Origin: Escherichia phage mutPK1A2
DNA: 44,784 nt
Direction: 5' to 3' (one strand)
Sequence record: NC_047889.1
The notes below the pieces were generated by a model. It did no database searches and was not told the origin of the DNA. It saw only the letters and a list, made by a program, of their open reading frames with translations. Below, piece after piece: positions 3,621 through 43,973 of the stretch; positions within the stretch are counted from its first letter, which is position 1, and the number at the start of each line of letters is the position of its first letter. The position numbers and the translations under genes are program-made.

Positions 3621-6248
3621 ATGCAAGACCTACACGCTATTCAACTTCAACTTGAAGAAGAAATGTTTAACGGCGGTATCCGTCGCTTTGAAGCGGACCA
3701 ACAACGCCAGATTGCATCCGGTAATGAATCAGACACGGCATGGAATCGCCGCTTATTGTCCGAACTAATCGCACCTATGGCGGAAGGTATTCAGGCTTAC
3801 AAGGAAGAATACGAAGGCAAGAGAGGTCGTGCACCACGTGCATTAGCTTTCATTAACTGCGTAGAAAACGAAGTAGCAGCATATATCACCATGAAAATCG
3901 TTATGGACATGCTGAATACAGACGTTACCTTACAAGCCATCGCTATGAATGTAGCGGACCGCATCGAAGACCAAGTACGTTTTAGCAAGCTGGAAGGTCA
4001 CGCAGCTAAATACTTTGAGAAAGTGAAGAAGTCGCTTAAGGCTAGCAAGACTAAATCTTATCGTCATGCGCACAACGTAGCGGTAGTAGCTGAGAAATCT
4101 GTTGCTGACCGTGACGCGGATTTCTCCCGTTGGGAGGCATGGCCTAAAGACACCTTGCTGCAAATCGGTATGACCTTGCTCGAAATATTGGAGAATAGTG
4201 TATTCTTCAATGGTCAACCTGTCTTCCTTCGTACCTTGCGCACTAACGGCGGAAAGCATGGTGTTTACTATTTACAGACCAGTGAACATGTTGGCGAGTG
4301 GATAACTGCATTTAAGGAACATGTAGCGCAGCTCAGCCCTGCCTATGCACCTTGCGTTATACCTCCCCGCCCTTGGGTATCACCTTTTAACGGTGGGTTT
4401 CATACTGAGAAAGTAGCAAGCCGTATTCGTCTGGTAAAAGGCAATCGTGAGCACGTCCGCAAGCTGACCAAAAAGCAAATGCCAGCGGTTTACAAGGCTG
4501 TTAACGCTTTGCAGGCGACTAAGTGGCAGGTTAATAAAGAGGTTTTGCAGGTAGTAGAAGACGTTATCCGTCTCGACCTTGGTTATGGTGTGCCTTCCTT
4601 TAAACCGCTCATTGACCGCGAGAACAAGCCAGCTAATCCAGTGCCGCTAGAATTTCAGCACCTACGGGGCCGTGAACTGAAAGAAATGCTTACGCCGGAA
4701 CAATGGCAAGCCTTTATCAACTGGAAAGGTGAATGCACCAAGCTGTATACCGCTGAGACTAAGCGCGGCAGCAAATCGGCGGCGACCGTCCGCATGGTAG
4801 GACAGGCCCGTAAATACAGCCAGTTTGACGCAATATACTTCGTGTATGCACTGGACAGCCGCAGCCGCGTCTACGCGCAATCTAGCACGCTCTCTCCGCA
4901 ATCAAACGACTTAGGCAAGGCATTGCTCCGTTTTACCGAAGGGCAGCGCCTTGATAGCGCTGAGGTGCTTAAATGGTTTTTGGTGAACGGGGCTAATAAC
5001 TGGGGTTGGGATAAGAAAACTTTTGACGTGCGCACCGCTAACGTGCTGGATAGTGAATTTCAAGACATGTGCCGCGACATTGCAGCGGATCCGCTGACCT
5101 TCACTCAATGGGTTAATGCCGACTCCCCTTACGACTTCCTTGCTTGGTGCTTTGAATATGCGCGTTATCTGGATGCACTGGATGAAGGCACGCAAGACCA
5201 ATTCATGACGCACCTCCCAGTCCATCAAGATGGTAGTTGTTCTGGTATCCAGCACTACAGTGCTATGCTACGCGATGCAGTAGGTGCGAAAGCGGTAAAC
5301 CTTAAGCCCTCTGACTCCCCTCAAGATATTTATGGTGCCGTTGCGCAGGTAGTAATTCAGAAGAATTATGCATACATGAATGCAGAGGATGCGGAAACCT
5401 TCACTTCTGGCAGCGTGACTTTAACAGGTGCAGAACTTCGTAGCATGGCTAGTGCGTGGGATATGATAGGAATCACTCGCGGCCTGACCAAAAAGCCCGT
5501 AATGACACTACCTTACGGCAGCACACGTCTAACCTGCCGTGAGTCAGTGATTGATTATATCGTTGATTTAGAAGAAAAAGAGGCCCAACGGGCTATTGCG
5601 GAAGGGCGTACCGCCAACCCTGTACATCCTTTTGATAATGACCGTAAGGACAGCCTGACACCTAGCGCAGCTTATAACTATATGACAGCTCTAATCTGGC
5701 CTTCTATCTCGGAAGTGGTTAAAGCTCCTATAGTGGCAATGAAAATGATTCGTCAGCTTGCACGTTTCGCAGCTAAAAGAAACGAAGGCTTAGAATATCC
5801 CTTACCAACTGGCTTCATCTTGCAACAAAAGATAATGGCTACCGATATGCTCCGCGTATCCACTTGCTTGATGGGTGAAATCAAGATGAGTCTCCAGATT
5901 GAAACAGATGTAGTTGATGAAACGGCAATGATGGGTGCGGCTGCTCCTAACTTCGTCCATGGTCACGATGCTAGCCACCTGATTCTGACTGTATGTGACC
6001 TAGTGGATAAAGGTATTACATCCATTGCAGTCATCCATGATTCTTTCGGTACTCATGCAGGACGTACCGCAGACCTGCGGGATAGCTTAAGGGAAGAAAT
6101 GGTTAAGATGTATCAAAACCATAATGCCCTGCAAAACCTGCTAGATGTGCACGAAGAGCGTTGGTTAGTAGACACCGGAATCCAAGTACCAGAGCAAGGG
6201 GAGTTTGACCTTAACGAAATCTTAGTTTCAGACTATTGCTTCGCATAA
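3621..6248 (+). CDS. Single-subunit DNA-dependent RNA polymerase, SP6-type
   Basis: 875 aa; N-terminus [32 protein letters not shown] recognised as SP6 RNAP; catalytic motifs [13 protein letters not shown] and HDSFGTH present; RBS AGGAG. Confidence 0.95.
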
Positions 6249-6363: not shown

Positions 6364-6505
6364 ACCATCGGAGATGGGAAAGAGAAGGGAAGTTAAAGGA
6401 TATAAAGGTAGTAATAGGTATTAAAGGTTATATAGGTTACCTAGGAATACCTATTACCTTCCTCCTTCCTCTTATTACTACTTAGAGGAAGGGCAGACCT
6501 AGGTT

Positions 6506-8732: not shown

Positions 8733-8771
8733 AGGCTCTTATTAAGTATATTAAATAACTGGAGATTGATT

Positions 8772-9494
8772 ATGTATAAATTAGTATTGAATGCAGGTGA
8801 TTATGTTCGTAACATCAATGAAGCCTCACGTCGTTATCGTTGCCGTGGTGTAGTGGATCGTGTAAGTGAGAACATGTATCATGTAGAATATGATGATGGT
8901 GTTAAGGCTTCTTATCACAAGAAAACTGCACATAAATATCTTGAAAAGGTTGTAGAGGTAAACAATCAATGTAAGTGCATACATGATGAGGTTTGCGATA
9001 AGTGCAGACGTCAGGCAATTAAAGCCTTTACCTTTGCTCAACGCTATGGCTCTATGTATGGTACTGGTCACAAGACCCTTGCAGAAGCAGCTTGGAAGAC
9101 ATTGCAGTTTGAGCATTCAAATGGACGACGCACCACACTTAAGAAAGAGCGCCGCAATGTAATCACTGGTAAGACTCAAAGTGAGATGATTAAGCAATGT
9201 GGCACTGCATTAGGTGTTACACAGTTTAATACTCGTGCATTGGGTAAATCCACAGGACAAGCTATGGTAAAGATTGGCGAAGCCATGATGCATCCAAATG
9301 TACCTGTGCGAATCATGGATGTTGACCATGCAATCACAGAACAAGGTACGCAACGACGTGTAATTAATAAGCATTTTGCCGACACTATAGAAGGTATTAT
9401 TCGTAAGCAAGGGTTGAAAGGTCTTCACATCTTAAATGGTGAAGAATTACTGTACCTACCTATCGTTACTGAAGAAACCTACGTGAATATCTAA
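8772..9494 (+). CDS. Hypothetical protein (240 aa) with Cys cluster CKCIHDEVCDKC
   Basis: ORF track (first ATG at 8772, RBS GGAG); between primase and DNA polymerase. Confidence 0.6.
   Translation: MYKLVLNAGDYVRNINEASRRYRCRGVVDRVSENMYHVEYDDGVKASYHKKTAHKYLEKVVEVNNQCKCIHDEVCDKCRRQAIKAFTFAQRYGSMYGTGHKTLAEAAWKTLQFEHSNGRRTTLKKERRNVITGKTQSEMIKQCGTALGVTQFNTRALGKSTGQAMVKIGEAMMHPNVPVRIMDVDHAITEQGTQRRVINKHFADTIEGIIRKQGLKGLHILNGEELLYLPIVTEETYVNI
9373..9395 (+). promoter_or_regulatory. Weaker promoter-like element ATTTTGCCGACACTATAGAAGGT inside a CDS
   Basis: Core GACACTATAGAAGG conserved; upstream half diverges from consensus. Confidence 0.4.
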
Positions 9495-9504
9495 GGAGTT
9501 AATC

Positions 9505-9723
9505 ATGACTAAGGTATTAATTTATATGCGTGGACCTCATAAATGCTATGCAGTTGTAGCACCAGATGGTGTTAAGCCCTATGGTACTTCAAAAGGATTG
9601 GCATTAATAGGTGCTAGTCGTAGTGCAAGTTTCCAAATGGAACTTTTTGGTCATTGGACTGAATGGCAATTCCGTGAGGATTTTAAAGTCATTGGCAGCT
9701 TCATGGTGAAACATGCAAAATAA
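9505..9723 (+). CDS. Hypothetical protein (72 aa)
   Basis: ORF track; strong RBS TAAGGAG. Confidence 0.55.
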   Translation: MTKVLIYMRGPHKCYAVVAPDGVKPYGTSKGLALIGASRSASFQMELFGHWTEWQFREDFKVIGSFMVKHAK

Positions 9724-9922
9724 ACATAGTCTTAAAATGTTCGATGGTCATGAAGACCTGCAAGCCAAGATTACTAACCAAGCCTTCCTGTTTGCACAGC
9801 TAACTATGGCTGAAGCAAAGAAGAATAGCCTGACGCGCGAGCAAGTTATCAAAGAGGCAACTTGGGAGCCACACCAAGGCAAATACATGGGCCAGAAATT
9901 AACTGTAACACGCAGTCGATAA
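9713..9922 (+). CDS. Hypothetical protein (69 aa)
   Basis: ORF track; overlaps the previous gene by 11 nt; start uncertain. Confidence 0.4.
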   Translation: MQNKHSLKMFDGHEDLQAKITNQAFLFAQLTMAEAKKNSLTREQVIKEATWEPHQGKYMGQKLTVTRSR

Positions 9923-9932
9923 GTAAAGGGTT

Positions 9933-9948
9933 GTCTCACACGTGAGAC
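9933..9948. repeat. Palindrome variant GTCTCACACGTGAGAC (copy 4)
   Basis: One central substitution (CACGTG for CATGTG); follows an ORF stop and is followed by CCTTTC. Confidence 0.8.
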
Positions 9949-9979
9949 AGCCTTTCATCATATTGATTGGAGGTGCATT

Positions 9980-10087
9980 ATGTCACGTGATTATGATTCT
10001 GATTGGGATTTCCAAGATTCAATGAACTCAAAACCTGAACGTTCAGATGACTACTACGAAACAGAGGCAATGTATGAAAGCTATTAA
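9980..10087 (+). CDS. Small acidic protein (35 aa)
   Basis: RBS GGAGGT 7 nt before ATG; short, so tentative. Confidence 0.35.
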   Translation: MSRDYDSDWDFQDSMNSKPERSDDYYETEAMYESY

Positions 10088-10292
10088 AGTCAGTAAGGTT
10101 TGCTCTTGCGGTAAAGGTTATCGCAGTCGTATTGATGGTAAGTGTGGGCATTGCAGGTCTAAGAAAGAGGCTGCTTTGTTTGATAAGTACCACAATGAAT
10201 TAGCATATAACTATCCTCATCTAACACCTAATTCTTTATTAGGACTTGGTTATAGGGTTAAATACTTTGGAGCAATCTATGAAATCAATTGA
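10074..10292 (+). CDS. Small zinc-ribbon-like protein (72 aa; CxC...CxxC)
   Basis: In-frame ATG at 10074 with GAGG upstream inside track ORF 10047..10292; four Cys in VCSCGKG...CGHC; overlaps the DNAP start by 14 nt. Confidence 0.45.
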   Translation: MKAIKVSKVCSCGKGYRSRIDGKCGHCRSKKEAALFDKYHNELAYNYPHLTPNSLLGLGYRVKYFGAIYEIN

Positions 10293-12825
10293 TTGGAAGA
10301 AGGAAGCAGAAGGCCGCATCTTAGTGATGGATTCTGAGGCTAAAGGCCTGCTGGATGCTATCCGATATGGCCACCGCGAAGATGTGCACATCATTTGCTG
10401 CATGGATTTGCTTACTACAGAGGAGTTCCTCTTCTTTGACCCATACGAGATGCGTGACCCTGAAGCAAGAGAACGCCTAAAAGAATGGGAAGGCCATCAA
10501 GATGGAACATTGGTTGACGGTGTTAACTTCCTTAAGCACTGCGAAGCCATCGTCTCACAGAACTTCCTAGGGTACGACGGCCTTCTATTTGAGAAAGCAT
10601 TCCCTGATATCTGGAAAGGCTTTAACTATACCGAGAGACGCGGCAAGGGCAGACTCCGCGCTGACCTGTGTCCGGTACGCGTCATGGATACGCTGGTCAT
10701 GAGTCGCCTGTTAAACCCCGATAGACGCCTCCCTCCGCAAGCATACGCCAAAGGCATGGGTAACGTAGCCCCTCACTCAATTGAGGCGCACGGCATCCGT
10801 ATAGGCCGTTATAAGCCGGAGAACGAGGACTGGTCTAAACTAACGGACCACATGGTTCACCGTGTACGTGAAGACGTGGCTATTGGTCGCGACCTCTTCC
10901 TCTGGCTATACAACGGGGAATGGACGGAGCACAAACGCCGTGGCGTGAATAAACGTACGGGCCTAGGCATTGAGACGGCCTTCCACATGGAATCAATTGT
11001 GGCGCTGGAGATGAGCCGTCAGGCCGAGCGTGGATTCCGTCTGGATATAGATAAAGCATTAGCACGATGCGAGGAATTGGACGCTAAGATTGATGAGACA
11101 GTCGCAGCGTTCCGTCCGCACATGCCTATGCGTATCAGGTCTAAACCTTTTAAACCGGAAGAAAAGAATGAAGTATGCCAACGCGCAAATGAGTATGGAG
11201 CTAGCAACAATATACCTACTGTCCTTGACCCCTCACACTTTCTTCATGCCGAGAGACGAGGAGATCGCAAAACAGTATGGAGTGTCACTACTAAGTCTGG
11301 TGATTGGTCGGCTAGTATCAAGAAAGACTTTCCTCACCTTAGAGGAAACCGTAATGACACGCCAAGTATCAAGTGGATTGGCGCTTACTCGCCTGTTACT
11401 TTCGAAGAGATTCCCTTGGGTAACAGGGATACAGTTAAGCAAGTGCTCTATGATTATGGATGGAAAGGTGTTGAATTTAACGATACCGAGCAAGCGCATC
11501 TGGATGAGTATGGAGTGTTACCCAAACCTTGGAGTGGGAAGATAAATGAAAAGTCCCTTACTTTATGGCAAGAGAGAGCCGCACGTGAAGGTAAAACAGT
11601 CCCTGATTGGTGCTTGGGTATCGCTGCATGGTACATACTCGTATCCCGTCGTGGTCAGATCCTTAACCGTGGTGACGTTGAAGCCTTCGACCAGAAGGGG
11701 GCGTGGCCTTCGCAAGCTGGTGTACGAAAGTGTCGCGGCCTTGTACCTGTAGCATTTAACAAGGAGTTAGGAATCAATGCGCAGCAATATTACGAAAGGT
11801 ACGGATGCTGGCCTACGTCAGACAAGGATGACGGAGAGTGGCGTGTGCCAGCTATTGCTATTAGTATTGGAACTTCTACGTTCCGTATGCGTCATCGTAA
11901 CGTGGTTAATATTCCTGCCCGTGGTTTGTATCCTTTACGTGATTTATTCATAGCCGGTAAAGGTAAGCTAATCCTTGGTTGTGATGGTGCTGGTCTTGAA
12001 CTACGTGTACTGTCTCACTTCATGAATGACCCTGAATATCAAGATATTGTACTGCATGGTGACATTCACACCCATAATCAAATGAAGGCTGGTCTTCCTA
12101 AGCGTGACATGGCGAAGACATTTATATATGCCTTCCTATATGGGTCTGGTATAGCTAGCCTTGCAGCAGTATGTGGTGTTACTGAGGAAGAAATGGAGGA
12201 AGTTGTGGCAAGATTTGAGGTTGAACTACCATCTCTTGCACGTCTTCGTGAGAATGTTATCGCACAAGGTAACAAGTTTGGCTACCTACAAGCACCTGAT
12301 GGTCATTGGGGTCGCATCCGTATGTCTGGTGGTGAACTTAAAGAGCACACTATGCTTAACGTGTTACTCCAAATGACTGGCTCTTTGTGTATGAAATACG
12401 CATTGGTCAGAGCGTTTGCAGTGATGCGCAAGGAAGGTGTGGCCTTAGATAGCATGGGAAACCCTTGCGGTATAGCTAACGTGCACGATGAAATCCAGAT
12501 GGAAGTCCCTGAAGATGAGGTCTTGTTTCTCAACTACGACTTGCCTTTCACCTTAGAAGGGTTCGAAACAGAGAAGGCTGCTGTGAAAGCAGTGTTCGAT
12601 GCAGAGGAGAAACGTGTTCATGTGGATTCTGAAGGACGTATGTGGTCTGCTGCAAATCTCGTTAGCGTTGATGCTGATGCTGGTGTACTTCATTGCCAGC
12701 GTCGCTATCACCGTGCAGGGCATATCATTGCCGACGCAATGACTTGGGCGGGTCAGTATCTGAAGATGCGTTGTCCGATGGCAGGTGAGTATAAGATTGG
12801 TGCAAGTTGGAAGGAGACACACTAA
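10279..12825 (+). CDS. Family A DNA polymerase (T7 gp5-like)
   Basis: 848 aa from ATG 10279 (RBS GGAG); exo motif DSEAKGL, pol motifs DGAGLELRVL, RDMAKTFIYAFLYGSG, HDE. Confidence 0.95.
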   Translation: MKSIDWKKEAEGRILVMDSEAKGLLDAIRYGHREDVHIICCMDLLTTEEFLFFDPYEMRDPEARERLKEWEGHQDGTLVDGVNFLKHCEAIVSQNFLGYDGLLFEKAFPDIWKGFNYTERRGKGRLRADLCPVRVMDTLVMSRLLNPDRRLPPQAYAKGMGNVAPHSIEAHGIRIGRYKPENEDWSKLTDHMVHRVREDVAIGRDLFLWLYNGEWTEHKRRGVNKRTGLGIETAFHMESIVALEMSRQAERGFRLDIDKALARCEELDAKIDETVAAFRPHMPMRIRSKPFKPEEKNEVCQRANEYGASNNIPTVLDPSHFLHAERRGDRKTVWSVTTKSGDWSASIKKDFPHLRGNRNDTPSIKWIGAYSPVTFEEIPLGNRDTVKQVLYDYGWKGVEFNDTEQAHLDEYGVLPKPWSGKINEKSLTLWQERAAREGKTVPDWCLGIAAWYILVSRRGQILNRGDVEAFDQKGAWPSQAGVRKCRGLVPVAFNKELGINAQQYYERYGCWPTSDKDDGEWRVPAIAISIGTSTFRMRHRNVVNIPARGLYPLRDLFIAGKGKLILGCDGAGLELRVLSHFMNDPEYQDIVLHGDIHTHNQMKAGLPKRDMAKTFIYAFLYGSGIASLAAVCGVTEEEMEEVVARFEVELPSLARLRENVIAQGNKFGYLQAPDGHWGRIRMSGGELKEHTMLNVLLQMTGSLCMKYALVRAFAVMRKEGVALDSMGNPCGIANVHDEIQMEVPEDEVLFLNYDLPFTLEGFETEKAAVKAVFDAEEKRVHVDSEGRMWSAANLVSVDADAGVLHCQRRYHRAGHIIADAMTWAGQYLKMRCPMAGEYKIGASWKETH

Positions 12826-13014: not shown

Positions 13015-13078
13015 AATCCTAGGTAATCTAGGTTTATAAGGTAGTATAGGTAACTAAGTAAATATAGGAGATATAAAT

Positions 13079-36078: not shown

Positions 36079-36361
36079 ACATGCAGCTACAGAGGATGAG
36101 GTTGGCATTCTGCATGGTGCTATTACCAAGATGTTCAACAAGAAAGCACAGGCAATACTGGACACTATAGAAGGGGATCCAGATGCAGCACTGGCTTTAG
36201 TGTCCGGTAAGGACATTGGAGCTATGTGTAAGTGGGTACTGGATAATGGCATCACTGCTACACCTGCTGCACAGCAGGAAGAATCCAAGTTATCTAAGCG
36301 CCTCAAGGCTATCCGAGAGGCATCAAGTGGCAAGATTATTCAGTTTACAAAAGAGGAGTAA
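36062..36361 (+). CDS. Putative terminase small subunit
   Basis: About 100 aa from GTG 36062 behind GGAGGG (track start 36017 is TTG inside the holin gene); upstream of large terminase. Function by position only. Confidence 0.45.
   Translation: MSVHNKHAATEDEVGILHGAITKMFNKKAQAILDTIEGDPDAALALVSGKDIGAMCKWVLDNGITATPAAQQEESKLSKRLKAIREASSGKIIQFTKEE
36154..36176 (+). promoter_or_regulatory. Promoter-like element AATACTGGACACTATAGAAGGGG inside the small terminase gene
   Basis: Core CTGGACACTATAGAAGG conserved; would drive HNH and large terminase. Confidence 0.5.
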
Positions 36362-36364
36362 GAG

Positions 36365-36697
36365 ATGATAAAGCAGATAGAGGAGGAAGGATATACAATA
36401 CTGCCGGAAGGTGTGATTCTTAGTAAGAGAAAACAACCTATGCGGTTTAGTGTTAACCATAAAGGCTATGCACGTATTGGTTTGATGCTAAAAGGCAAGC
36501 AACGCTTCTTCTATCTGCACGTCATTATTGCTACTAAATTCTGTAAGAAGCTACCACACCATACTCAAGTTAATCATAAAGATGGCAATAAATTGAATAA
36601 CGCTAAAGATAACTTAGAGTGGTGTACTGCTAGCGAAACATACTGCACAAATACCATGGAGACATACAAGGAGATATTACTTTGTACTCTAAGATGA
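36365..36697 (+). CDS. HNH endonuclease (homing-endonuclease type)
   Basis: 110 aa; HKGYARIGL...FFYLHVIIATKF...VNHKDGNKLNNAKDNLEWCTASE is the HNH_3-type motif pattern; strong RBS AGGAG. Confidence 0.8.
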   Translation: MIKQIEEEGYTILPEGVILSKRKQPMRFSVNHKGYARIGLMLKGKQRFFYLHVIIATKFCKKLPHHTQVNHKDGNKLNNAKDNLEWCTASETYCTNTMETYKEILLCTLR

Positions 36698-36795
36698 AAG
36701 AACTAAGAGCTGTAGGAATGACCTATAAGCAGATAGCACAGAGCTTAAATGTAAGTGTGGCTACCGTGTTTAAACATTGTAAGGCAGGTGATTGA
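36694..36795 (+). CDS. Small helix-turn-helix ORF (33 aa), possibly the detached DNA-binding tail of the HNH endonuclease
   Basis: MKELRAVGMTYKQIAQSLNVSVATVFKHCK reads as an HTH; its ATG overlaps the HNH stop (ATGA) in the -1 frame and its stop overlaps the large terminase start. Confidence 0.4.
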   Translation: MKELRAVGMTYKQIAQSLNVSVATVFKHCKAGD

Positions 36796-38693
36796 TGGCT
36801 AAGGCAAGAGAATCACAAGCAGAGGCTCTTGCCAGATGGGAGATGCTACAGGAATTACAGCAGACCTTTCCTTACACAGCGGAAGGTTTGCTTCTCTTTG
36901 CAGATACAGTTATTCATAACTTGATTGCAGGCAAACCTCATCTGATTCGTATGCAGGCCGATATTTTAAAGTTTCTATTCTATGGACATAAATATCGCCT
37001 CATCGAAGCGCCCCGTGGCATCGCTAAAACTACACTATCAGCAATCTATACTGTTTTCCGTATCATCCATGAACCCCATAAGCGTATCATGGTAGTGTCC
37101 CAAAACGCCAAGCGAGCAGAGGAAATTGCAGGTTGGGTAGTGAAAATCTTCCGTGGCCTAGACTTCCTTGAGTTTATGCTACCGGACATATACGCTGGCG
37201 ACCGTGCATCAGTCAAAGCATTTGAGATTCACTACACGTTACGCGGCAGCGATAAGTCACCTTCTGTATCCTGTTACTCTATCGAAGCAGGTATGCAGGG
37301 TGCTCGTGCTGATATTATTCTAGCAGATGACGTAGAATCGATGCAGAATGCTCGTACAGCAGCAGGCCGCGCCTTGCTTGAGGAGTTGACCAAGGAGTTT
37401 GAATCTATTAACCAATTTGGTGACATCATCTACCTTGGGACGCCTCAGAACGTAAACTCTATCTACAATAACTTACCTGCTCGTGGTTACTCGGTTCGTA
37501 TCTGGACCGCACGTTATCCTTCAGTAGAGCAAGAGCAATGTTATGGTGACTTCCTTGCACCTATGATTGTGCAGGATATGAAAGACAACCCAGCACTTCG
37601 CTCTGGTTATGGGTTAGACGGTAACAGTGGTGCACCTTGCGCACCTGAAATGTACGATGATGAAGTGCTGATTGAGAAGGAAATCTCTCAGGGTGCGGCT
37701 AAGTTCCAGCTTCAGTTTATGCTTAATACTCGCATGATGGATGCTGACCGCTATCCGCTACGCCTGAATAACCTCATCTTCACTTCATTCGGTACAGAGG
37801 AAGTCCCTGTGATGCCTACATGGAGCAACGACTCTATTAACATCATTGGCGATGCACCGAAGTATGGCAATAAGCATACAGACTTTATGTATCGCCCTGT
37901 GGCCCGACCTTATGAGTGGGGTGCTGTTACCCGCAAGATTATGTATATTGACCCCGCAGGTGGCGGTAAGAACGGGGATGAAACTGGTGTGGCTATCGTC
38001 TTCCTGCACGGCACATTCATTTATGTGTATCAGTGCTTTGGTGTGCCGGGAGGATACCGCGAATCGTCCCTGAATCGCATTGTGCAGGCCGCAAAGCAGG
38101 CAGGTGTTAAAGAGGTATTCATTGAAAAGAACTTTGGTCATGGCGCGTTTGAGGCCGTTATAAAGCCATACTTTGAACGAGAGTGGCCTGTGACTCTGGA
38201 GGAAGATTACGCCACCGGACAGAAAGAGTTGCGTATCATTGAAACACTAGAGCCACTAATGGCGGCCCACAGGCTCATCTTCAACGCAGAGATGGTCAAG
38301 TCTGATTTTGAGTCGGTACAGCACTATCCGCTTGAACTACGCATGTCATACAGCCTTTTCAATCAAATGTCGAACATCACGATTGAGAAGAACAGCCTAC
38401 GACACGATGACCGCTTAGACGCTCTGTATGGCGCTATACGGCAATTAACTTCTCAGATAGACTATGACGAGGTTACACGGATTAATCGCCTCAGAGCGCA
38501 GGAGATGCGCGATTACATCCATGCTATGAACACACCTCACCTCCGTAGGGCAATGCTCTATGGAGATTATGGCACTGAGCGAAGAGTAACCAACACTTCC
38601 GTGGCTATGCAGCAAAGAGTATACGGTCAGAATTACAGGAGTAAATCGGCAAGCAGAAATACACTTTCTGCAAGGATTTCAAGGACTTATTAA
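36795..38693 (+). CDS. Terminase large subunit
   Basis: 633 aa; Walker A-like APRGIAKTT; size and position typical of T7 gp19. Confidence 0.85.
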   Translation: MAKARESQAEALARWEMLQELQQTFPYTAEGLLLFADTVIHNLIAGKPHLIRMQADILKFLFYGHKYRLIEAPRGIAKTTLSAIYTVFRIIHEPHKRIMVVSQNAKRAEEIAGWVVKIFRGLDFLEFMLPDIYAGDRASVKAFEIHYTLRGSDKSPSVSCYSIEAGMQGARADIILADDVESMQNARTAAGRALLEELTKEFESINQFGDIIYLGTPQNVNSIYNNLPARGYSVRIWTARYPSVEQEQCYGDFLAPMIVQDMKDNPALRSGYGLDGNSGAPCAPEMYDDEVLIEKEISQGAAKFQLQFMLNTRMMDADRYPLRLNNLIFTSFGTEEVPVMPTWSNDSINIIGDAPKYGNKHTDFMYRPVARPYEWGAVTRKIMYIDPAGGGKNGDETGVAIVFLHGTFIYVYQCFGVPGGYRESSLNRIVQAAKQAGVKEVFIEKNFGHGAFEAVIKPYFEREWPVTLEEDYATGQKELRIIETLEPLMAAHRLIFNAEMVKSDFESVQHYPLELRMSYSLFNQMSNITIEKNSLRHDDRLDALYGAIRQLTSQIDYDEVTRINRLRAQEMRDYIHAMNTPHLRRAMLYGDYGTERRVTNTSVAMQQRVYGQNYRSKSASRNTLSARISRTY

Positions 38694-38714
38694 TTACCGG
38701 ACACTATAGAAGGA
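38692..38714 (+). promoter_or_regulatory. Phage promoter AATTACCGGACACTATAGAAGGA
   Basis: Consensus core immediately after the terminase stop; followed by an AT-rich TAGGT-repeat leader and hairpin GGGTGTAC-TCCT-GTACACCC. Confidence 0.7.
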
Positions 38715-38845
38715 AGGCCCAGATAATAAGAGAAATAACAAGGATAATATAGGTTAACCTAGGTTATATAGGTATTCCTTAGTATGGGTGTACTCCTGTA
38801 CACCCTATTCCTTACTTCCTTACTATATTAACTATAATAGGAGAT

Positions 38846-39127
38846 ATGATGGCTAATGAGTACAGCAATCAGCCTTTAACAGGCCGATATGACAGAAAAC
38901 AAGTACAACCAGTTAGTGAACACTTAATGGTCCCAAGTGTTAACACTAATATTGATCTATACAACCCAGCAAAACAGGCTAGTGTTATTAATGATACCAC
39001 AAAGTCCGGTAAGCAACTCGGAGCTATGCTTGTAACAGAAATGGGTGTCCTGATGCTAGCCCGTGGAGGTGAACCCACAAGCAAGTGGGACCAGACAAAG
39101 ACATCAGAGATTATTGTTCCAGCCTAA
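38846..39127 (+). CDS. Paralog family member 1 (93 aa), unknown function
   Basis: RBS AGGAG; shares the motif SGKQ-x-GAM-V...L..AR...P.S.WD with the next ORF. Confidence 0.6.
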   Translation: MMANEYSNQPLTGRYDRKQVQPVSEHLMVPSVNTNIDLYNPAKQASVINDTTKSGKQLGAMLVTEMGVLMLARGGEPTSKWDQTKTSEIIVPA

Positions 39128-39143
39128 TAAGAGGAGAAAAGAT

Positions 39144-39431
39144 ATGCCTAAGTATGGAGATGCAAACACTGTAACAGGTCAGTCCTTCCGTGTTAAAGAT
39201 GTTCAAACTATTGCAACTGCACTGCCATTGCCTGTGGTAGCAGAGGCAGACCTTAAATCTAAAGCACACCCAATTAACATCCACCATCTTTCGGGTAAAC
39301 AAAAAGGAGCCATGGTTGCGGTACAGAAAGCAGAGGGATCGCTATATATCGCTGTAGCACGAGATGCACTACCTGAATCTCCGTGGGATGCCACTACAAT
39401 GGAAGGTACCGCTGTTACGCCAGCGGGGTAA
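39144..39431 (+). CDS. Paralog family member 2 (95 aa), unknown function
   Basis: ATG 39144 with RBS AGGAG; contains HLSGKQKGAMVAVQKAEGSLYIAVARDALPESPWD. Confidence 0.6.
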   Translation: MPKYGDANTVTGQSFRVKDVQTIATALPLPVVAEADLKSKAHPINIHHLSGKQKGAMVAVQKAEGSLYIAVARDALPESPWDATTMEGTAVTPAG

Positions 39432-39438
39432 TATTATC

Positions 39439-40116
39439 ATGTTAGGTATTACAGGACAACGAAGTTTAAGTCATCAATCAAAGGTTGCCACGGAAGTGGC
39501 TCCTATTGTTGATATCTCAGAGGTGTCTGACGTTAACTCTTATCTAAACCAAAAGCACCTATCAGGTAAACAGGAAGACTATACTGTTCTGGCTAAGAAA
39601 GGTTCACGTTATTCATTGTATGCTGCAACAGGTTCTAAGCCAGAAGATAAGTGGTTGCCTTTAGAGCAAGCAACCCTACCTGATTCGAGTGCGTTAGATC
39701 TAATTGACACCATCGATGTTGAAGTTGCAAGTGCAAGCGACACAGTAGAGGTTAATGTAACCAAAGAGGGGACTGTGTGCATCCAGACGCCTATGAAGGG
39801 CTTAGCAGGTGATACAGTTTACCGGCAAGAATTGACTGCCAATATTAACCTTACCATTAATGAAAACGGAAGCCAAAGCGATACGGTTAAATTAAACATA
39901 TCAATTCCTAATTTGCCAGGAACATCTAGTGGTTCTTACTATACAGTTGACAATGTGCTGTGTACTTCTTTTGGAGACGACAGTCCTGTTATTGCCAATA
40001 TAGATGTCGATAAGGCTACCACTAACTTGATTGCTGTTACACTTCGTAAAGAGACGGCAACAGACATTAAGCTGTCTCTTGTAATTAGGTGGTCAATGCC
40101 AGTGGAGGTTGTATAA
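39439..40116 (+). CDS. Paralog family member 3 (225 aa; paralogous N-domain plus C-terminal extension)
   Basis: ATG 39439 (track start 39364 overlaps the upstream gene); N-terminal region has the same TGQ...HLSGKQ...WLP architecture. Confidence 0.55.
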   Translation: MLGITGQRSLSHQSKVATEVAPIVDISEVSDVNSYLNQKHLSGKQEDYTVLAKKGSRYSLYAATGSKPEDKWLPLEQATLPDSSALDLIDTIDVEVASASDTVEVNVTKEGTVCIQTPMKGLAGDTVYRQELTANINLTINENGSQSDTVKLNISIPNLPGTSSGSYYTVDNVLCTSFGDDSPVIANIDVDKATTNLIAVTLRKETATDIKLSLVIRWSMPVEVV

Positions 40117-40460
40117 TGCTTAACAAGTACTTCAAGCGTAAAGAGTTTGCTTGCCGTTGTGGGTGCGGTACATCCACTGTTGATGCTGAGTTATTACAGG
40201 TAGTCACAGATGTACGTGAGCACTTTGGTGCTCCTGTAGTTATTACTTCTGGACACCGCTGTGCTAAGCACAATGCTAATGTGGGAGGTGCTAAGAACTC
40301 CATGCATCTTACTGGTAAGGCTGCTGACATTAAGGTACAAGGTACTACACCTTACCGTGTATGGTCCTATCTAACAGCACGCTACCCCAATAAATATGGC
40401 ATTGGGTCTTATTCTAATTTCACCCACATTGATGTAAGAGAGGGATGTGCACGATGGTAA
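40116..40460 (+). CDS. Endolysin, M15-family zinc peptidase
   Basis: 114 aa from ATG 40116 (RBS GGAGGT); the FKRKEFACRCGCG...SGHRC...H...D pattern is characteristic of M15 peptidase endolysins. Confidence 0.75.
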   Translation: MLNKYFKRKEFACRCGCGTSTVDAELLQVVTDVREHFGAPVVITSGHRCAKHNANVGGAKNSMHLTGKAADIKVQGTTPYRVWSYLTARYPNKYGIGSYSNFTHIDVREGCARW

Positions 40461-41034: not shown

Positions 41035-41057
41035 ATTTACTGGACACTATAGAAGAG
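41035..41057 (+). promoter_or_regulatory. Phage promoter ATTTACTGGACACTATAGAAGAG (tailspike promoter)
   Basis: Exact consensus upstream of the tailspike region. Confidence 0.75.
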
Positions 41058-41135
41058 ATAAGATAGGCCGTTCTTTTGAGCGGCCTATTACTAGCCAATC
41101 TTCATAGGGAGGGTTGGGACGTAATAGGAGAGTAT

Positions 41136-41276
41136 ATGGCTAAGTTAACTAAACCCAAGACAACGGGCTTACTACATAGAGATACTGTACTAGCTACCTT
41201 ATTAGATAATTTACTATCTAAAAGGCGTGTTACATTTGAAGGTGTAGTTCCAAGTGAAGATACTAAATTGAGATAG
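41136..41276 (+). pseudogene. Short ORF (46 aa), possible N-terminal remnant of a lost second tailspike gene
   Basis: Good RBS (AGGAGAG) right after a strong promoter but only 46 codons (MAKLTKPKTTGLLHRDTV...), followed by about 260 bp of non-coding DNA; in related two-tailspike phages a full tailspike gene sits here. Confidence 0.4.
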
Positions 41277-41537: not shown

Positions 41538-43973
41538 ATGATTCAAAGACTAAGTTCTTCATTAGTTAAATTCAAGAGTAAAATAGCAGGTGCAATCTGG
41601 CGTAACTTGGATGACAAGCTCACCGAGGTTGTATCGCTTAAAGATTTTGGAGCCAAAGGTGATGGTAAGACAAACGACCAAGATGCAGTAAATGCAGCGA
41701 TGGCTTCAGGTAAGAGAATTGACGGTGCTGGTGCTACTTACAAAGTATCATCTTTACCTGATATGGAGCGATTCTATAACACCCGCTTCGTATGGGAACG
41801 TTTATCAGGTCAACCTCTTTACTATGTGAGTAAAGGTTTTATCAATGGTGAACTCTATAAAATCACGGATAACCCTTATTACAATGCTTGGCCTCAAGAC
41901 AAAGCGTTTGTATATGAGAACGTGATATATGCACCTTACATGGGTAGCGACCGTCATGGTGTTAGTCGTCTGCATGTATCATGGGTTAAGTCTGGTGACG
42001 ATGGTCAAACATGGTCTACACCAGAGTGGTTAACTGATCTGCATCCAGATTACCCTACAGTGAACTATCATTGTATGAGCATGGGTGTATGTCGCAACCG
42101 TCTGTTTGCCATGATTGAAACACGTACTTTAGCCAAGAACGCACTAACCAATTGTGCATTGTGGGATCGCCCTATGTCTCGTAGTCTGCATCTTACGGGT
42201 GGTATCACTAAGGCTGCAAATCAGCGATATGCAACAATACATGTACCAGATCACGGACTATTCGTGGGCGATTTTGTTAACTTCTCTAATTCTGCGGTAA
42301 CAGGTGTATCAGGTGATATGACTGTTGCAACGGTAATAGATAAGGACAACTTCACGGTTCTTACACCTAACCAGCAGACTTCAGATTTGAATAACGCTGG
42401 AAAGAATTGGCACATGGGTACTTCTTTCCATAAGTCTCCGTGGCGTAAGACAGATCTTGGTCTAATCCCTCATGTCACAGAGGTGCATAGCTTTGCTACT
42501 ATTGATAACAATGGCTTTGTTATGGGCTATCATCAAGGTGATGTAGCTCCACGAGAAGTTGGGCTTTTCTACTTCCCTGATGCTTTCAATAGCCCATCTA
42601 ATTATGTTCGTCGTCAGATACCATCTGAGTATGAACCAGATGCGGCAGAGCCATGCATCAAGTACTATGACGGTGTATTATACCTTATCACTCGTGGTAC
42701 TCGTGGCGACCGACTAGGAAGCTCTCTGCATCGTAGTAGAGATATAGGTCAGACTTGGGAGTCACTAAGATTTCCACATAATGTGTATCATACTACTTTA
42801 CCGTTTGCTAAGGTAGGAGATGACCTTATTATGTTTGGTTCAGAACGTGCAGAAAATGAATGGGAAGCAGGTGCACCAGATGATCGTTACAAGGCATCTT
42901 ATCCTCGTACCTTCTATGCACGATTGAATGTAAACAATTGGAATGCAGCTGATATTGAATGGGTTAACATCACAGACCAAATCTATCAGGGTGACATTGT
43001 GGACTCTAGTGTAGGTGTAGGTTCGGTAGTAGTTAAAGACAGCTACATTTACTATATCTTTGGTGGCGAAAACCATTTCAACCCAATGACTTATGGTGAC
43101 AACAGAGATAAAGACCCATTTAAAGGTCATGGACACCCTACTGATATATACTGCTATAAGATGCAGATTGCAAATGACAGTCGTGTATCTCGTAAGTTTA
43201 CATATGGTGCAACTCCCGGACAGGCTATACCTACCTTCATGGGTACTGATGGTATTCGTACTATTCCTGCTCCACTTCACTTATCAGGAGAGGTAGTTGC
43301 CGCAGATATGACTGTCGAACATCTTACCCTGAAGGCAAGTACAAGTGCTAATATTCGCTCAGAGATGCTGATGGAAGGTGAATATGGGTTCATTGGTAAG
43401 ACTATACCAAAGGATAACCCAACTGCCCAACGTGTCATCATCTCTGGTGGAGGGGGTACAGCAGCAGATACCGGTGCGCAAATTACCTTACATGGAGCAG
43501 GTTCTAGTACTTCTAGACGCGCAGTATATAATGCCAATGAGCACTTGTTCCAAAGCGGGGCTATCATGCCCTACAATGATAACGTGTATCCTGCTGGCGG
43601 CCCTCGTAATAGATTCACTACTATCCATCTTACAAGTGACCCTATTATTACGTCTGATGCCACTCATAAGTATGGATCACAAGGTATTGATGAGAGTGTA
43701 CTAAAGGCATGGGGTAAGGTTAGCTTCAAGCAGTACAAGTTGATTGGTGAGATGTCTCGTGGTGTGCACCACACTCACTTTGGTGTATTGGCACAAGACA
43801 TTGTAGCTGCTTTTGCATCCGAAGGGTTAGATGCAATCGACTTCGGCATTGTCTCCTTCGAAGAAGGTCAGTTTGGTGTTAGATATAGTGAAATCTTAAT
43901 CTTGGAGGCTGCTTATACTCGTTATCGTTTAGATAAGTTAGAGGAGATGTATGCCACTAATAAAATCAGTTAA
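41538..43973 (+). CDS. Tailspike endosialidase (endo-N-acetylneuraminidase) with C-terminal chaperone-like end
   Basis: 811 aa; sialidase Asp-boxes SGDDGQTW and SRDIGQTW; overall sequence recognised as K1-phage endosialidase; RBS AAAAGGAGGT. Confidence 0.9.
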   Translation: MIQRLSSSLVKFKSKIAGAIWRNLDDKLTEVVSLKDFGAKGDGKTNDQDAVNAAMASGKRIDGAGATYKVSSLPDMERFYNTRFVWERLSGQPLYYVSKGFINGELYKITDNPYYNAWPQDKAFVYENVIYAPYMGSDRHGVSRLHVSWVKSGDDGQTWSTPEWLTDLHPDYPTVNYHCMSMGVCRNRLFAMIETRTLAKNALTNCALWDRPMSRSLHLTGGITKAANQRYATIHVPDHGLFVGDFVNFSNSAVTGVSGDMTVATVIDKDNFTVLTPNQQTSDLNNAGKNWHMGTSFHKSPWRKTDLGLIPHVTEVHSFATIDNNGFVMGYHQGDVAPREVGLFYFPDAFNSPSNYVRRQIPSEYEPDAAEPCIKYYDGVLYLITRGTRGDRLGSSLHRSRDIGQTWESLRFPHNVYHTTLPFAKVGDDLIMFGSERAENEWEAGAPDDRYKASYPRTFYARLNVNNWNAADIEWVNITDQIYQGDIVDSSVGVGSVVVKDSYIYYIFGGENHFNPMTYGDNRDKDPFKGHGHPTDIYCYKMQIANDSRVSRKFTYGATPGQAIPTFMGTDGIRTIPAPLHLSGEVVAADMTVEHLTLKASTSANIRSEMLMEGEYGFIGKTIPKDNPTAQRVIISGGGGTAADTGAQITLHGAGSSTSRRAVYNANEHLFQSGAIMPYNDNVYPAGGPRNRFTTIHLTSDPIITSDATHKYGSQGIDESVLKAWGKVSFKQYKLIGEMSRGVHHTHFGVLAQDIVAAFASEGLDAIDFGIVSFEEGQFGVRYSEILILEAAYTRYRLDKLEEMYATNKIS

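Follow-up and report, generated by a model that had tools for sequence, protein, structure and literature searches.

Directly downstream of the large terminase gene (TerL) of Escherichia phage mutPK1A2 (NC_047889.1; 44,784 nucleotides, the whole of which is referred to here as the window), an SP6/K1E/K1-5-type podophage genome of the Molineuxvirinae, three consecutive open reading frames (ORFs A, B and C) encode small proteins that have a module of ~85 amino acids (aa) in common. Judged by their sequences, the three genes are true ancient paralogues. Their products are probably accessory capsid-surface proteins, in which the module would anchor the protein to the capsid and ORF C would display an outward domain. 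The assignment to the capsid surface is based on virion data from phage Kp7, display-type fusions, flexible linkers, dispensability and a dedicated late promoter, and the accessory nature is suggested by a copy number of 2-3, the clean insertion or deletion of ORF C and the mosaic structure of the cassette. The module family is best described as an ancient, widespread and essentially uncharacterised group of small virion proteins of the capsid-decoration kind.

The shared module, its lineages and its fused forms

ORF A, encoding a gp41-type single-module protein, is located at 38846..39127 on the + strand and comprises 93 aa, or 92 aa when translation begins at the ATG at 38849. This second ATG is more probably the start codon, because AGGAG is found 5 nucleotides (nt) upstream and the annotation of PSK8 is likewise. 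ORF B (39144..39431, + strand) encodes a gp42-type single-module protein of 95 aa. ORF C (39439-40116, 225 aa) consists of an N-terminal module representing a third paralogue lineage (residues 1-80; 39439..39678, + strand) and a linker with a C-terminal all-beta domain (residues 81-225 and the stop codon; 39679..40116, + strand). The three ORFs of 93, 95 and 225 aa of the initial annotation were recovered at these positions, and the motifs quoted there (TGR/TGQ/TGQ, SGKQ, GAM in A and B, and a tryptophan near the end of the module) are all present. Strong Shine-Dalgarno sequences precede A and B. The ratio of nonsynonymous to synonymous substitution rates (dN/dS), determined against the relatives L001 and L014, was 0.05-0.06 for A, 0.05-0.09 for B and 0.09-0.26 for C, which marks A, B and C as genuine genes subject to purifying selection. 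dN/dS was near 1 in the closest pairs (A and B versus L032, the N-terminal module of C versus L010), with only a handful of substitutions. Joining of A, B and C by read-through or frameshifting was excluded, since no two of them share a reading frame and each has a start and a stop codon of its own. The label 'ocr-like', found under one megablast match (H22), is attached to the early part of an unverified record and has no bearing here.

The similarity between the three proteins, which had been claimed from a common architecture, is far beyond chance in BLASTP comparisons, shuffling tests and the profile phrog_2725. Pairwise BLASTP gave E-values of 3e-7 (A-B), 1e-5 (B-C) and 3e-3 (A-C). In Smith-Waterman alignments none of 2000 shuffles was as good as the real pair for A-B (z=9.2) and for B with residues 1-90 of C (z=8.3), and 4 of 2000 were for A with the same part of C (z=4.8). 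The C-terminal 135 aa of ORF C had no likeness to A or B in local alignments compared with shuffles. The hidden Markov model (HMM) of phrog_2725 matched A (1e-30), B (4.3e-43) and C (4.2e-15) over profile positions ~4-99 of 238, and phrog_32357, of unknown function, matched ORF C over its whole length (3.4e-123; residues 1-225 on positions 1-231 of 234). An HMM of the module itself recognized ORF A (1.1e-27) and the N-terminal module of ORF C (3.9e-22); on a six-frame translation of the whole window it found A, B and C and no other match. The initial annotation could not assign the proteins to a known family; the two PHROGs had in fact been catalogued, but are uncharacterised or mislabelled. 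Scans of A, B and C against Pfam and NCBIfam gave no meaningful match, and sequence searches of the PDB with B, C, Kp7 gp46, the module profile and P0116, a fused relative, left the module unmatched. Among 16 diverse members of the family the initiator methionine, a T-G near the N-terminus, one N, S-G-K and one A are invariant, and one G, one W and the P of a C-terminal '(V/I)TPA' are nearly so. ORF B has 72 database homologues of 93-101 aa, mostly on phage-sized contigs of about 44 kb.

Module genes are a regular constituent of this locus. In 31 of the 32 related loci that were scanned, 2 or 3 of them follow TerL directly; the exception, L021, ends ~100 bases past TerL. The proposed check of copy number in SP6, K1E and K1-5 gave three module genes in SP6 (41, 42 and 42.3, the third being a shortened 81-aa module) and two each in K1-5 and K1E. 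Pectobacterium phage POP72 has three bare modules, Kp7 a triplet of 88, 88 and 178 aa after TerL, and Aeromonas phage Tola two module genes, one of them with a C-terminal extension. The best non-self match was at the same gene position for 27/28 first, 29/29 second and 12/13 third genes, and each position is therefore regarded as an orthologue lineage of its own. Because 2-3 copies in fixed order occur throughout the SP6-like phages and orthology is position-specific, the A-B-C set is, on these alignments, not a recent local triplication. The local gene triplication of the initial annotation has to be given up accordingly, and the distant three-module fusions described below also speak against it.

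The idea of a diversifying locus was borne out. In relatives with a TerL 96-100% identical to that of the window, A is only 42-52% identical in most cases and B 57-73%, which makes the cassette a hot spot of divergence. In L007, the C-terminus of TerL is 100% and the lysis proteins are 96-100% identical, yet A is 47% and B 71% identical, and C is absent. L010 and L011 have ORF C, with 94-95% identity in its C-terminal domain, but a different A (51%) and B (61-66%). The cassette is a gene-by-gene mosaic with respect to its flanks (L007, L010, L011 and L032): the A and B alleles are only 47-73% identical between phages in which terminase and lysis genes hardly differ, and the same C is combined with different A/B alleles. 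ORF C itself is a clean presence/absence cassette: alignments with L032, L007, L009 and K1-5 stop at the stop codon of B and restart at the ATG of the endolysin gene. The relative P0072 resembles a gp41/gp42 chimera.

HMMER, run exhaustively over 1.84 billion cluster representatives, revealed 284 relatives at E<=1e-3, and the architectures of the best 150 of these (cluster representatives at 50% identity) were sorted. A single module of about 90 aa is present in 76 of the 150, a single module with a C-terminal domain of about 40-360 aa in 23, and three modules in tandem, on a single chain of 256-319 aa, in 35. Two further proteins combine three modules with an extra C-terminal domain. Two detected modules followed by about 90-200 further C-terminal residues were seen in 7, which are probably three-module proteins with a weak third module; two have two modules only, and none of the best 150 has more than three. 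Domains of 150-350 aa are attached to one module in further homologues, and in some of these a poly-Gly linker connects the two parts. The fused proteins are continuous repeats, each repeat with GD(K/R)...PVV...IN...SGK.GA...A.G...W...ITP(T/A). When fusions are compared with one another, modules 1, 2 and 3 have their nearest match at the same position of another fusion in 33/37, 37/37 and 33/37 cases, indicating that the triple repeat is old and that its positions are non-equivalent. Comparison of fused modules 1, 2 and 3 with genes A, B and C gave no positional match, every fused module being nearest to the B type. The occurrence of split and fused architectures suggests that the modules act together, and the prediction follows that the paralogues interact physically.

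In metagenomic T7-like phages a fused three-module protein of 260-300 aa is encoded at the genomic position of the split genes. Three fusion genes could be placed on contigs of such phages (L033, L035 and L036), and in all cases the small and large terminase genes immediately precede them. TerL identity of such phages goes down to about 40-50%, with the position after TerL still kept. A viral-contig search for loci related to the fused proteins P0116 and P0119 found none. On L033 (Logan SRR26596553 contig, 27 kb) two three-module proteins, six modules in total, are encoded after TerL at 8755-11170, one bare protein of 279 aa and one of 389 aa with an extra domain of ~127 aa; two tiny ORFs lie between them. 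L037 carries a further single-module gene with a C-terminal domain, and L036 a further module gene that is cut off at the contig end.

Virion association and the C-terminal domain of ORF C

The homologous triplet of Kp7 provides the link to the virion. Its three proteins, gp45, gp46 and gp47, match the module HMM at 2.5e-28, 1.7e-29 and 9.6e-24. Purified virions had been run on silver-stained gels, and mass spectrometry of excised bands identified all three, which the authors termed minor capsid proteins (bioRxiv 10.1101/2024.05.19.594906). A literature search for virion proteomics or cryo-electron microscopy of SP6-like heads returned this preprint only. By analogy with the Kp7 triplet, A, B and C would likewise be present in the virion. 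We infer that the proteins reside on the capsid and not on the tail, that they form hetero-oligomers and that the C-terminal domain of ORF C binds a ligand.

An AlphaFold2 model of ORF C, based on an alignment of 42 diverse homologues, reached a mean confidence (pLDDT) of 75; an earlier model from a shallow alignment had a pLDDT of 60 and was uninformative in Foldseek. The better model shows a disordered stretch (residues 1-19), a small beta-rich domain (residues 21-75; pLDDT about 80), a low-confidence linker (residues 76-89) and an all-beta sandwich (residues 90-220). The layout of a disordered arm and a small domain recalls decoration proteins whose arm becomes ordered on the capsid. The extension of ORF C exists as proposed in the initial annotation, although it measures about 145 aa rather than 130 and is only mildly enriched in S/T/N (28% versus 21-23% elsewhere). 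Fold searches with the whole model placed no decoration protein among the top matches, and Pfam gave no immunoglobulin (Ig) match for ORF C and no match to the head-fibre profile PF11133 for A, B or C.

The C-terminal domain at the position of the third gene varies between phages. The third paralogue of Kp7 has an Ig domain (Ig_3 at 3e-7) in place of the beta-sandwich, which matches the T5 decoration protein pb10 (5lxk, 8zvi) at an E-value of about 1e-16 and has 'Hoc-like head decoration' as its top PHROG match. A paralogue of phage Tola, gp63, contains a phi29 head-fibre stalk: a segment of it matches Pfam Phage_head_fibr with 27.9 bits against a cut-off of 24.6, and the protein also matches three 'head fiber' PHROGs. 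The C-terminal domain of ORF C has ~30%-identity homologues in the same gene of phages with a TerL 91-99% identical, and among 50,697 phage records it is confined to this locus. It is 96-97% identical across phages from E. coli hosts (including K1 strains) and Raoultella, which weakens the case for a host-specific receptor role. Among the functions that had been guessed, decoration is favoured by the Kp7 virion data and by the Ig and head-fibre fusions, and a contribution to receptor binding has lost ground with this conservation.

In the proposed mechanism, a dedicated phage promoter would drive late transcription of A, B and C along with the lysis genes, and the three proteins would bind to the outside of the mature T=7 head as decoration ('minor capsid') proteins. 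The ~85-residue module would serve as the capsid-anchoring and oligomerising unit, being composed of a presumably disordered basic N-terminal arm with the invariant T-G-(Q/K/R), a small beta-rich core with the invariant N, S-G-K, A and W, and a C-terminal '(V/I)TPA' tail. The paralogues would occupy non-equivalent positions and probably act jointly, either as a pseudo-three-fold hetero-oligomer or at adjacent sites around a local three-fold axis. A and B would be bare 'cement-like' subunits, and C would extend a flexible linker with an outward-facing beta-sandwich to touch something in the environment, perhaps a glycan. A broader and much more tentative idea is that the module constitutes a new capsid-anchoring fold, which would form a pseudo-three-fold unit either from separate paralogues or from a single-chain triple repeat, with one subunit per unit carrying an exchangeable display domain. 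Such a heteromeric 'plug-and-display' system would differ from the gpD/SHP, Soc, Hoc/pb10 and Dec types and would occur widely among SP6-like and other T7-like podophages.

Several observations weigh against a set of capsid-surface proteins acting together. The virion data come from Kp7 only, and the preprint gives presence, not location, 'minor capsid' being the label of its authors. According to the PDB searches no solved structure holds the module, and neither in sequence nor in fold does the module detectably resemble a solved decoration protein. The argument from the fusions is one of architecture alone, a positional match of fused modules to the split genes being undetectable. Not every phage has three modules (K1-5 has 2, L037 and L036 have at least 4 each, and L033 has 6), and A, B and C assort semi-independently between genomes, which is unexpected for a tight obligate complex. 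Finally, Ig-like domains occur on tail and neck proteins too, and Kp7 gp47 also matches 'neck whiskers protein', 'tail protein' and tail PHROGs.

These last matches, of which one is to 'neck whiskers protein gp24', would fit virion proteins of the tail, neck or portal region (whisker-, collar- or side-fibre-like), with the module as a docking domain and the C-terminal domain as a small knob, and the module genes are indeed close to the tailspike genes. We consider this unlikely, though it deserves to be kept in mind. Bands of 9-18 kDa on silver-stained virion gels would, in our estimate, suit hundreds of copies better than 6-12, one relative has a head-fibre stalk, and the C-terminal domain of ORF C is nearly constant across phages of different hosts. 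Moreover, the role of tailspike adaptor in this group has already been assigned to another protein, gp37/38.

That the three products are non-structural late proteins, i.e. assembly chaperones, lysis regulators or anti-defence factors which merely co-purify with particles, appears improbable. Co-transcription with the endolysin gene and translational coupling to it through the overlapping TAATG would agree with such a role, as would fast divergence, mosaicism and the dN/dS values near 1 in the closest pairs, few as the substitutions are. However, the Kp7 homologues came from discrete gel bands of purified virions, and fusions to Ig, head-fibre and long beta domains behind flexible linkers are a typical feature of proteins displayed on a surface. 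Even at the low TerL identities given above the position after TerL is kept, and dN/dS is 0.05-0.26 against L001 and L014, which among these close relatives have diverged more. The identity as acetyl-CoA acetyltransferases (thiolases), which exists as a label only (phrog_2725, many GenBank/RefSeq records, and 'putative' in the UAB_Phi78 table), is refuted as far as sequence analysis goes, since thiolases have roughly 390 aa and catalytic cysteines, whereas A and B comprise only 93-95 aa and contain no cysteine, no thiolase or acyltransferase match was obtained in Pfam or NCBIfam even at E<=1, and no PDB sequence matched. The label is a propagated annotation error that could mislead surveys of auxiliary metabolic genes (AMGs).

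Accessory proteins on the capsid surface would be of practical interest, since phages of the SP6, K1E and K1-5 types serve widely as models and as candidates for therapy. If the capsid-surface reading is true, a dispensable surface set with a naturally swappable C-terminal domain would amount to a ready-made display platform, and effects on particle stability, on adherence to mucus or surfaces and on immune recognition would be possible.

The transcription unit and its surroundings

The initial annotation had placed the three genes under their own promoter between the packaging and lysis genes, and this arrangement was confirmed. TerL (36792-38693) directly precedes the core of an SP6/K1-5-type phage RNA polymerase promoter (38689..38713, + strand), from which the paralogue and lysis genes are transcribed as an operon. 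With the sequence GGACACTATAGAAGG, the core (38699-38713) reproduces the SP6-type motif exactly; this motif occurs 12 times in the window versus 1.1 expected, and the promoter of the paralogue operon has the same position in almost all related loci. Downstream of ORF C lies the gene of an M15 peptidase endolysin (40116..40460, + strand), the next gene of the ORF A-C transcription unit according to the ORF list, the annotations of the PSK8 and KAW1A4500 homologues and the promoter list. ORF C ends, and the endolysin gene begins, within an overlapping TAATG, and the next phage promoter is found only at 41042, upstream of the tailspike gene; for these reasons A, B and C are assigned to one late transcription unit with the lysis genes.

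A conserved 5' leader of ~132 nt (38714..38845, + strand) separates the promoter from ORF A. It contains four TAGGTW repeats (38750-38774) and a stem-loop (38786-38805), a GC-rich hairpin of 8 bp with compensatory changes in 3/7 pairs across 7 SP6-like relatives. The hairpin was picked up by a terminator-like scan and is labelled 'terminator' in the record of phage KAW1A4500, yet the operon promoter is situated upstream of it. TAGGTW is present in 77 copies in the window versus 45.6 +/- 7.0 expected. Clusters at 6415-6505, 9453-9481, 13020-13052, 18220 and 38750-38774 are situated closely downstream of the phage promoters at 6348, 9380, 12999, 18200 and 38699.

Beyond the promoter at 41042, an ORF of 66 aa (41076-41276) precedes an ORF of 811 aa (41538-43973), the locus where K1-5 encodes its K1 endosialidase gp47. 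At the position of the smaller ORF, K1E presumably keeps a remnant of a second tailspike gene (K1-5 gp46). On the other side of the cassette, an insertion of ~430 bp (36358-36789) lies between the small and large terminase genes when the window is compared with L001, L007, L009, L014 and L032. The insertion holds an ORF (36365-36697, + strand) whose 110-aa product, with the HNH-like motif HHTQVNHKDGNKLNNAKDNLEW, is probably a free-standing homing endonuclease. L032 (IMGVR_UViG_3300000288_000022) has an insertion of ~746 bp in the 3' part of its TerL (~4311-5058, matching 38410-38415 of the window), which may be a mobile intron, intein or endonuclease.

Comparison with known systems

The closest known counterpart of A/B/C is the gp45/gp46/gp47 triplet of Kp7. 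Both are homologous, lie after TerL and before an M15 endolysin gene, and consist of two bare modules and a third with a C-terminal domain. Module identity is about 40-50%, and the third Kp7 protein (178 aa) carries an Ig domain, whereas ORF C has an unrelated beta-sandwich of about 145 aa. In K1-5, K1E and SP6 the locus and promoter are as in the window. The gp41 and gp42 proteins of these phages are of orthologous lineages to A and B (about 40-52% and about 50-69% identity, respectively, with the K1-5/SP6 counterparts), and SP6 gp42.3 is of the lineage of C; they are uncharacterised and carry the RefSeq label acetyl-CoA acetyltransferase. The third gene is missing in K1-5 and K1E, and that of SP6 lacks the display domain.

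T5 pb10 and T4 Hoc share the logic of ORF C, a small anchor domain, a linker and an outward-facing non-essential domain, and the Ig domain of the Kp7 orthologue is homologous to that of pb10. Unlike pb10 and Hoc, to which the module has no detectable similarity, the system described here comprises two extra bare paralogues, and the display domain of ORF C is not Ig by Pfam. Only Tola gp63 joins the module to a head-fibre-stalk segment of the phi29 gp8.5 type (PF11133); the proteins of the window have no stalk segment, and the base domain of gp8.5 is unmatched. Finally, lambda gpD, phage 21 SHP and T4 Soc are cement proteins that form trimers at quasi-three-fold positions. Judged from its architecture, the module would resemble them in its size of about 9-11 kDa, in being dispensable, in bringing three modules apparently together and in tolerating terminal fusions, although the proteins of the window match neither any PDB chain in sequence nor Pfam HDPD. 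A further difference lies in the composition of the unit: gpD, SHP and Soc form homotrimers from the product of a single gene, and the modules of the present family are supplied by two or three diverged paralogues or by a triple repeat within one chain.

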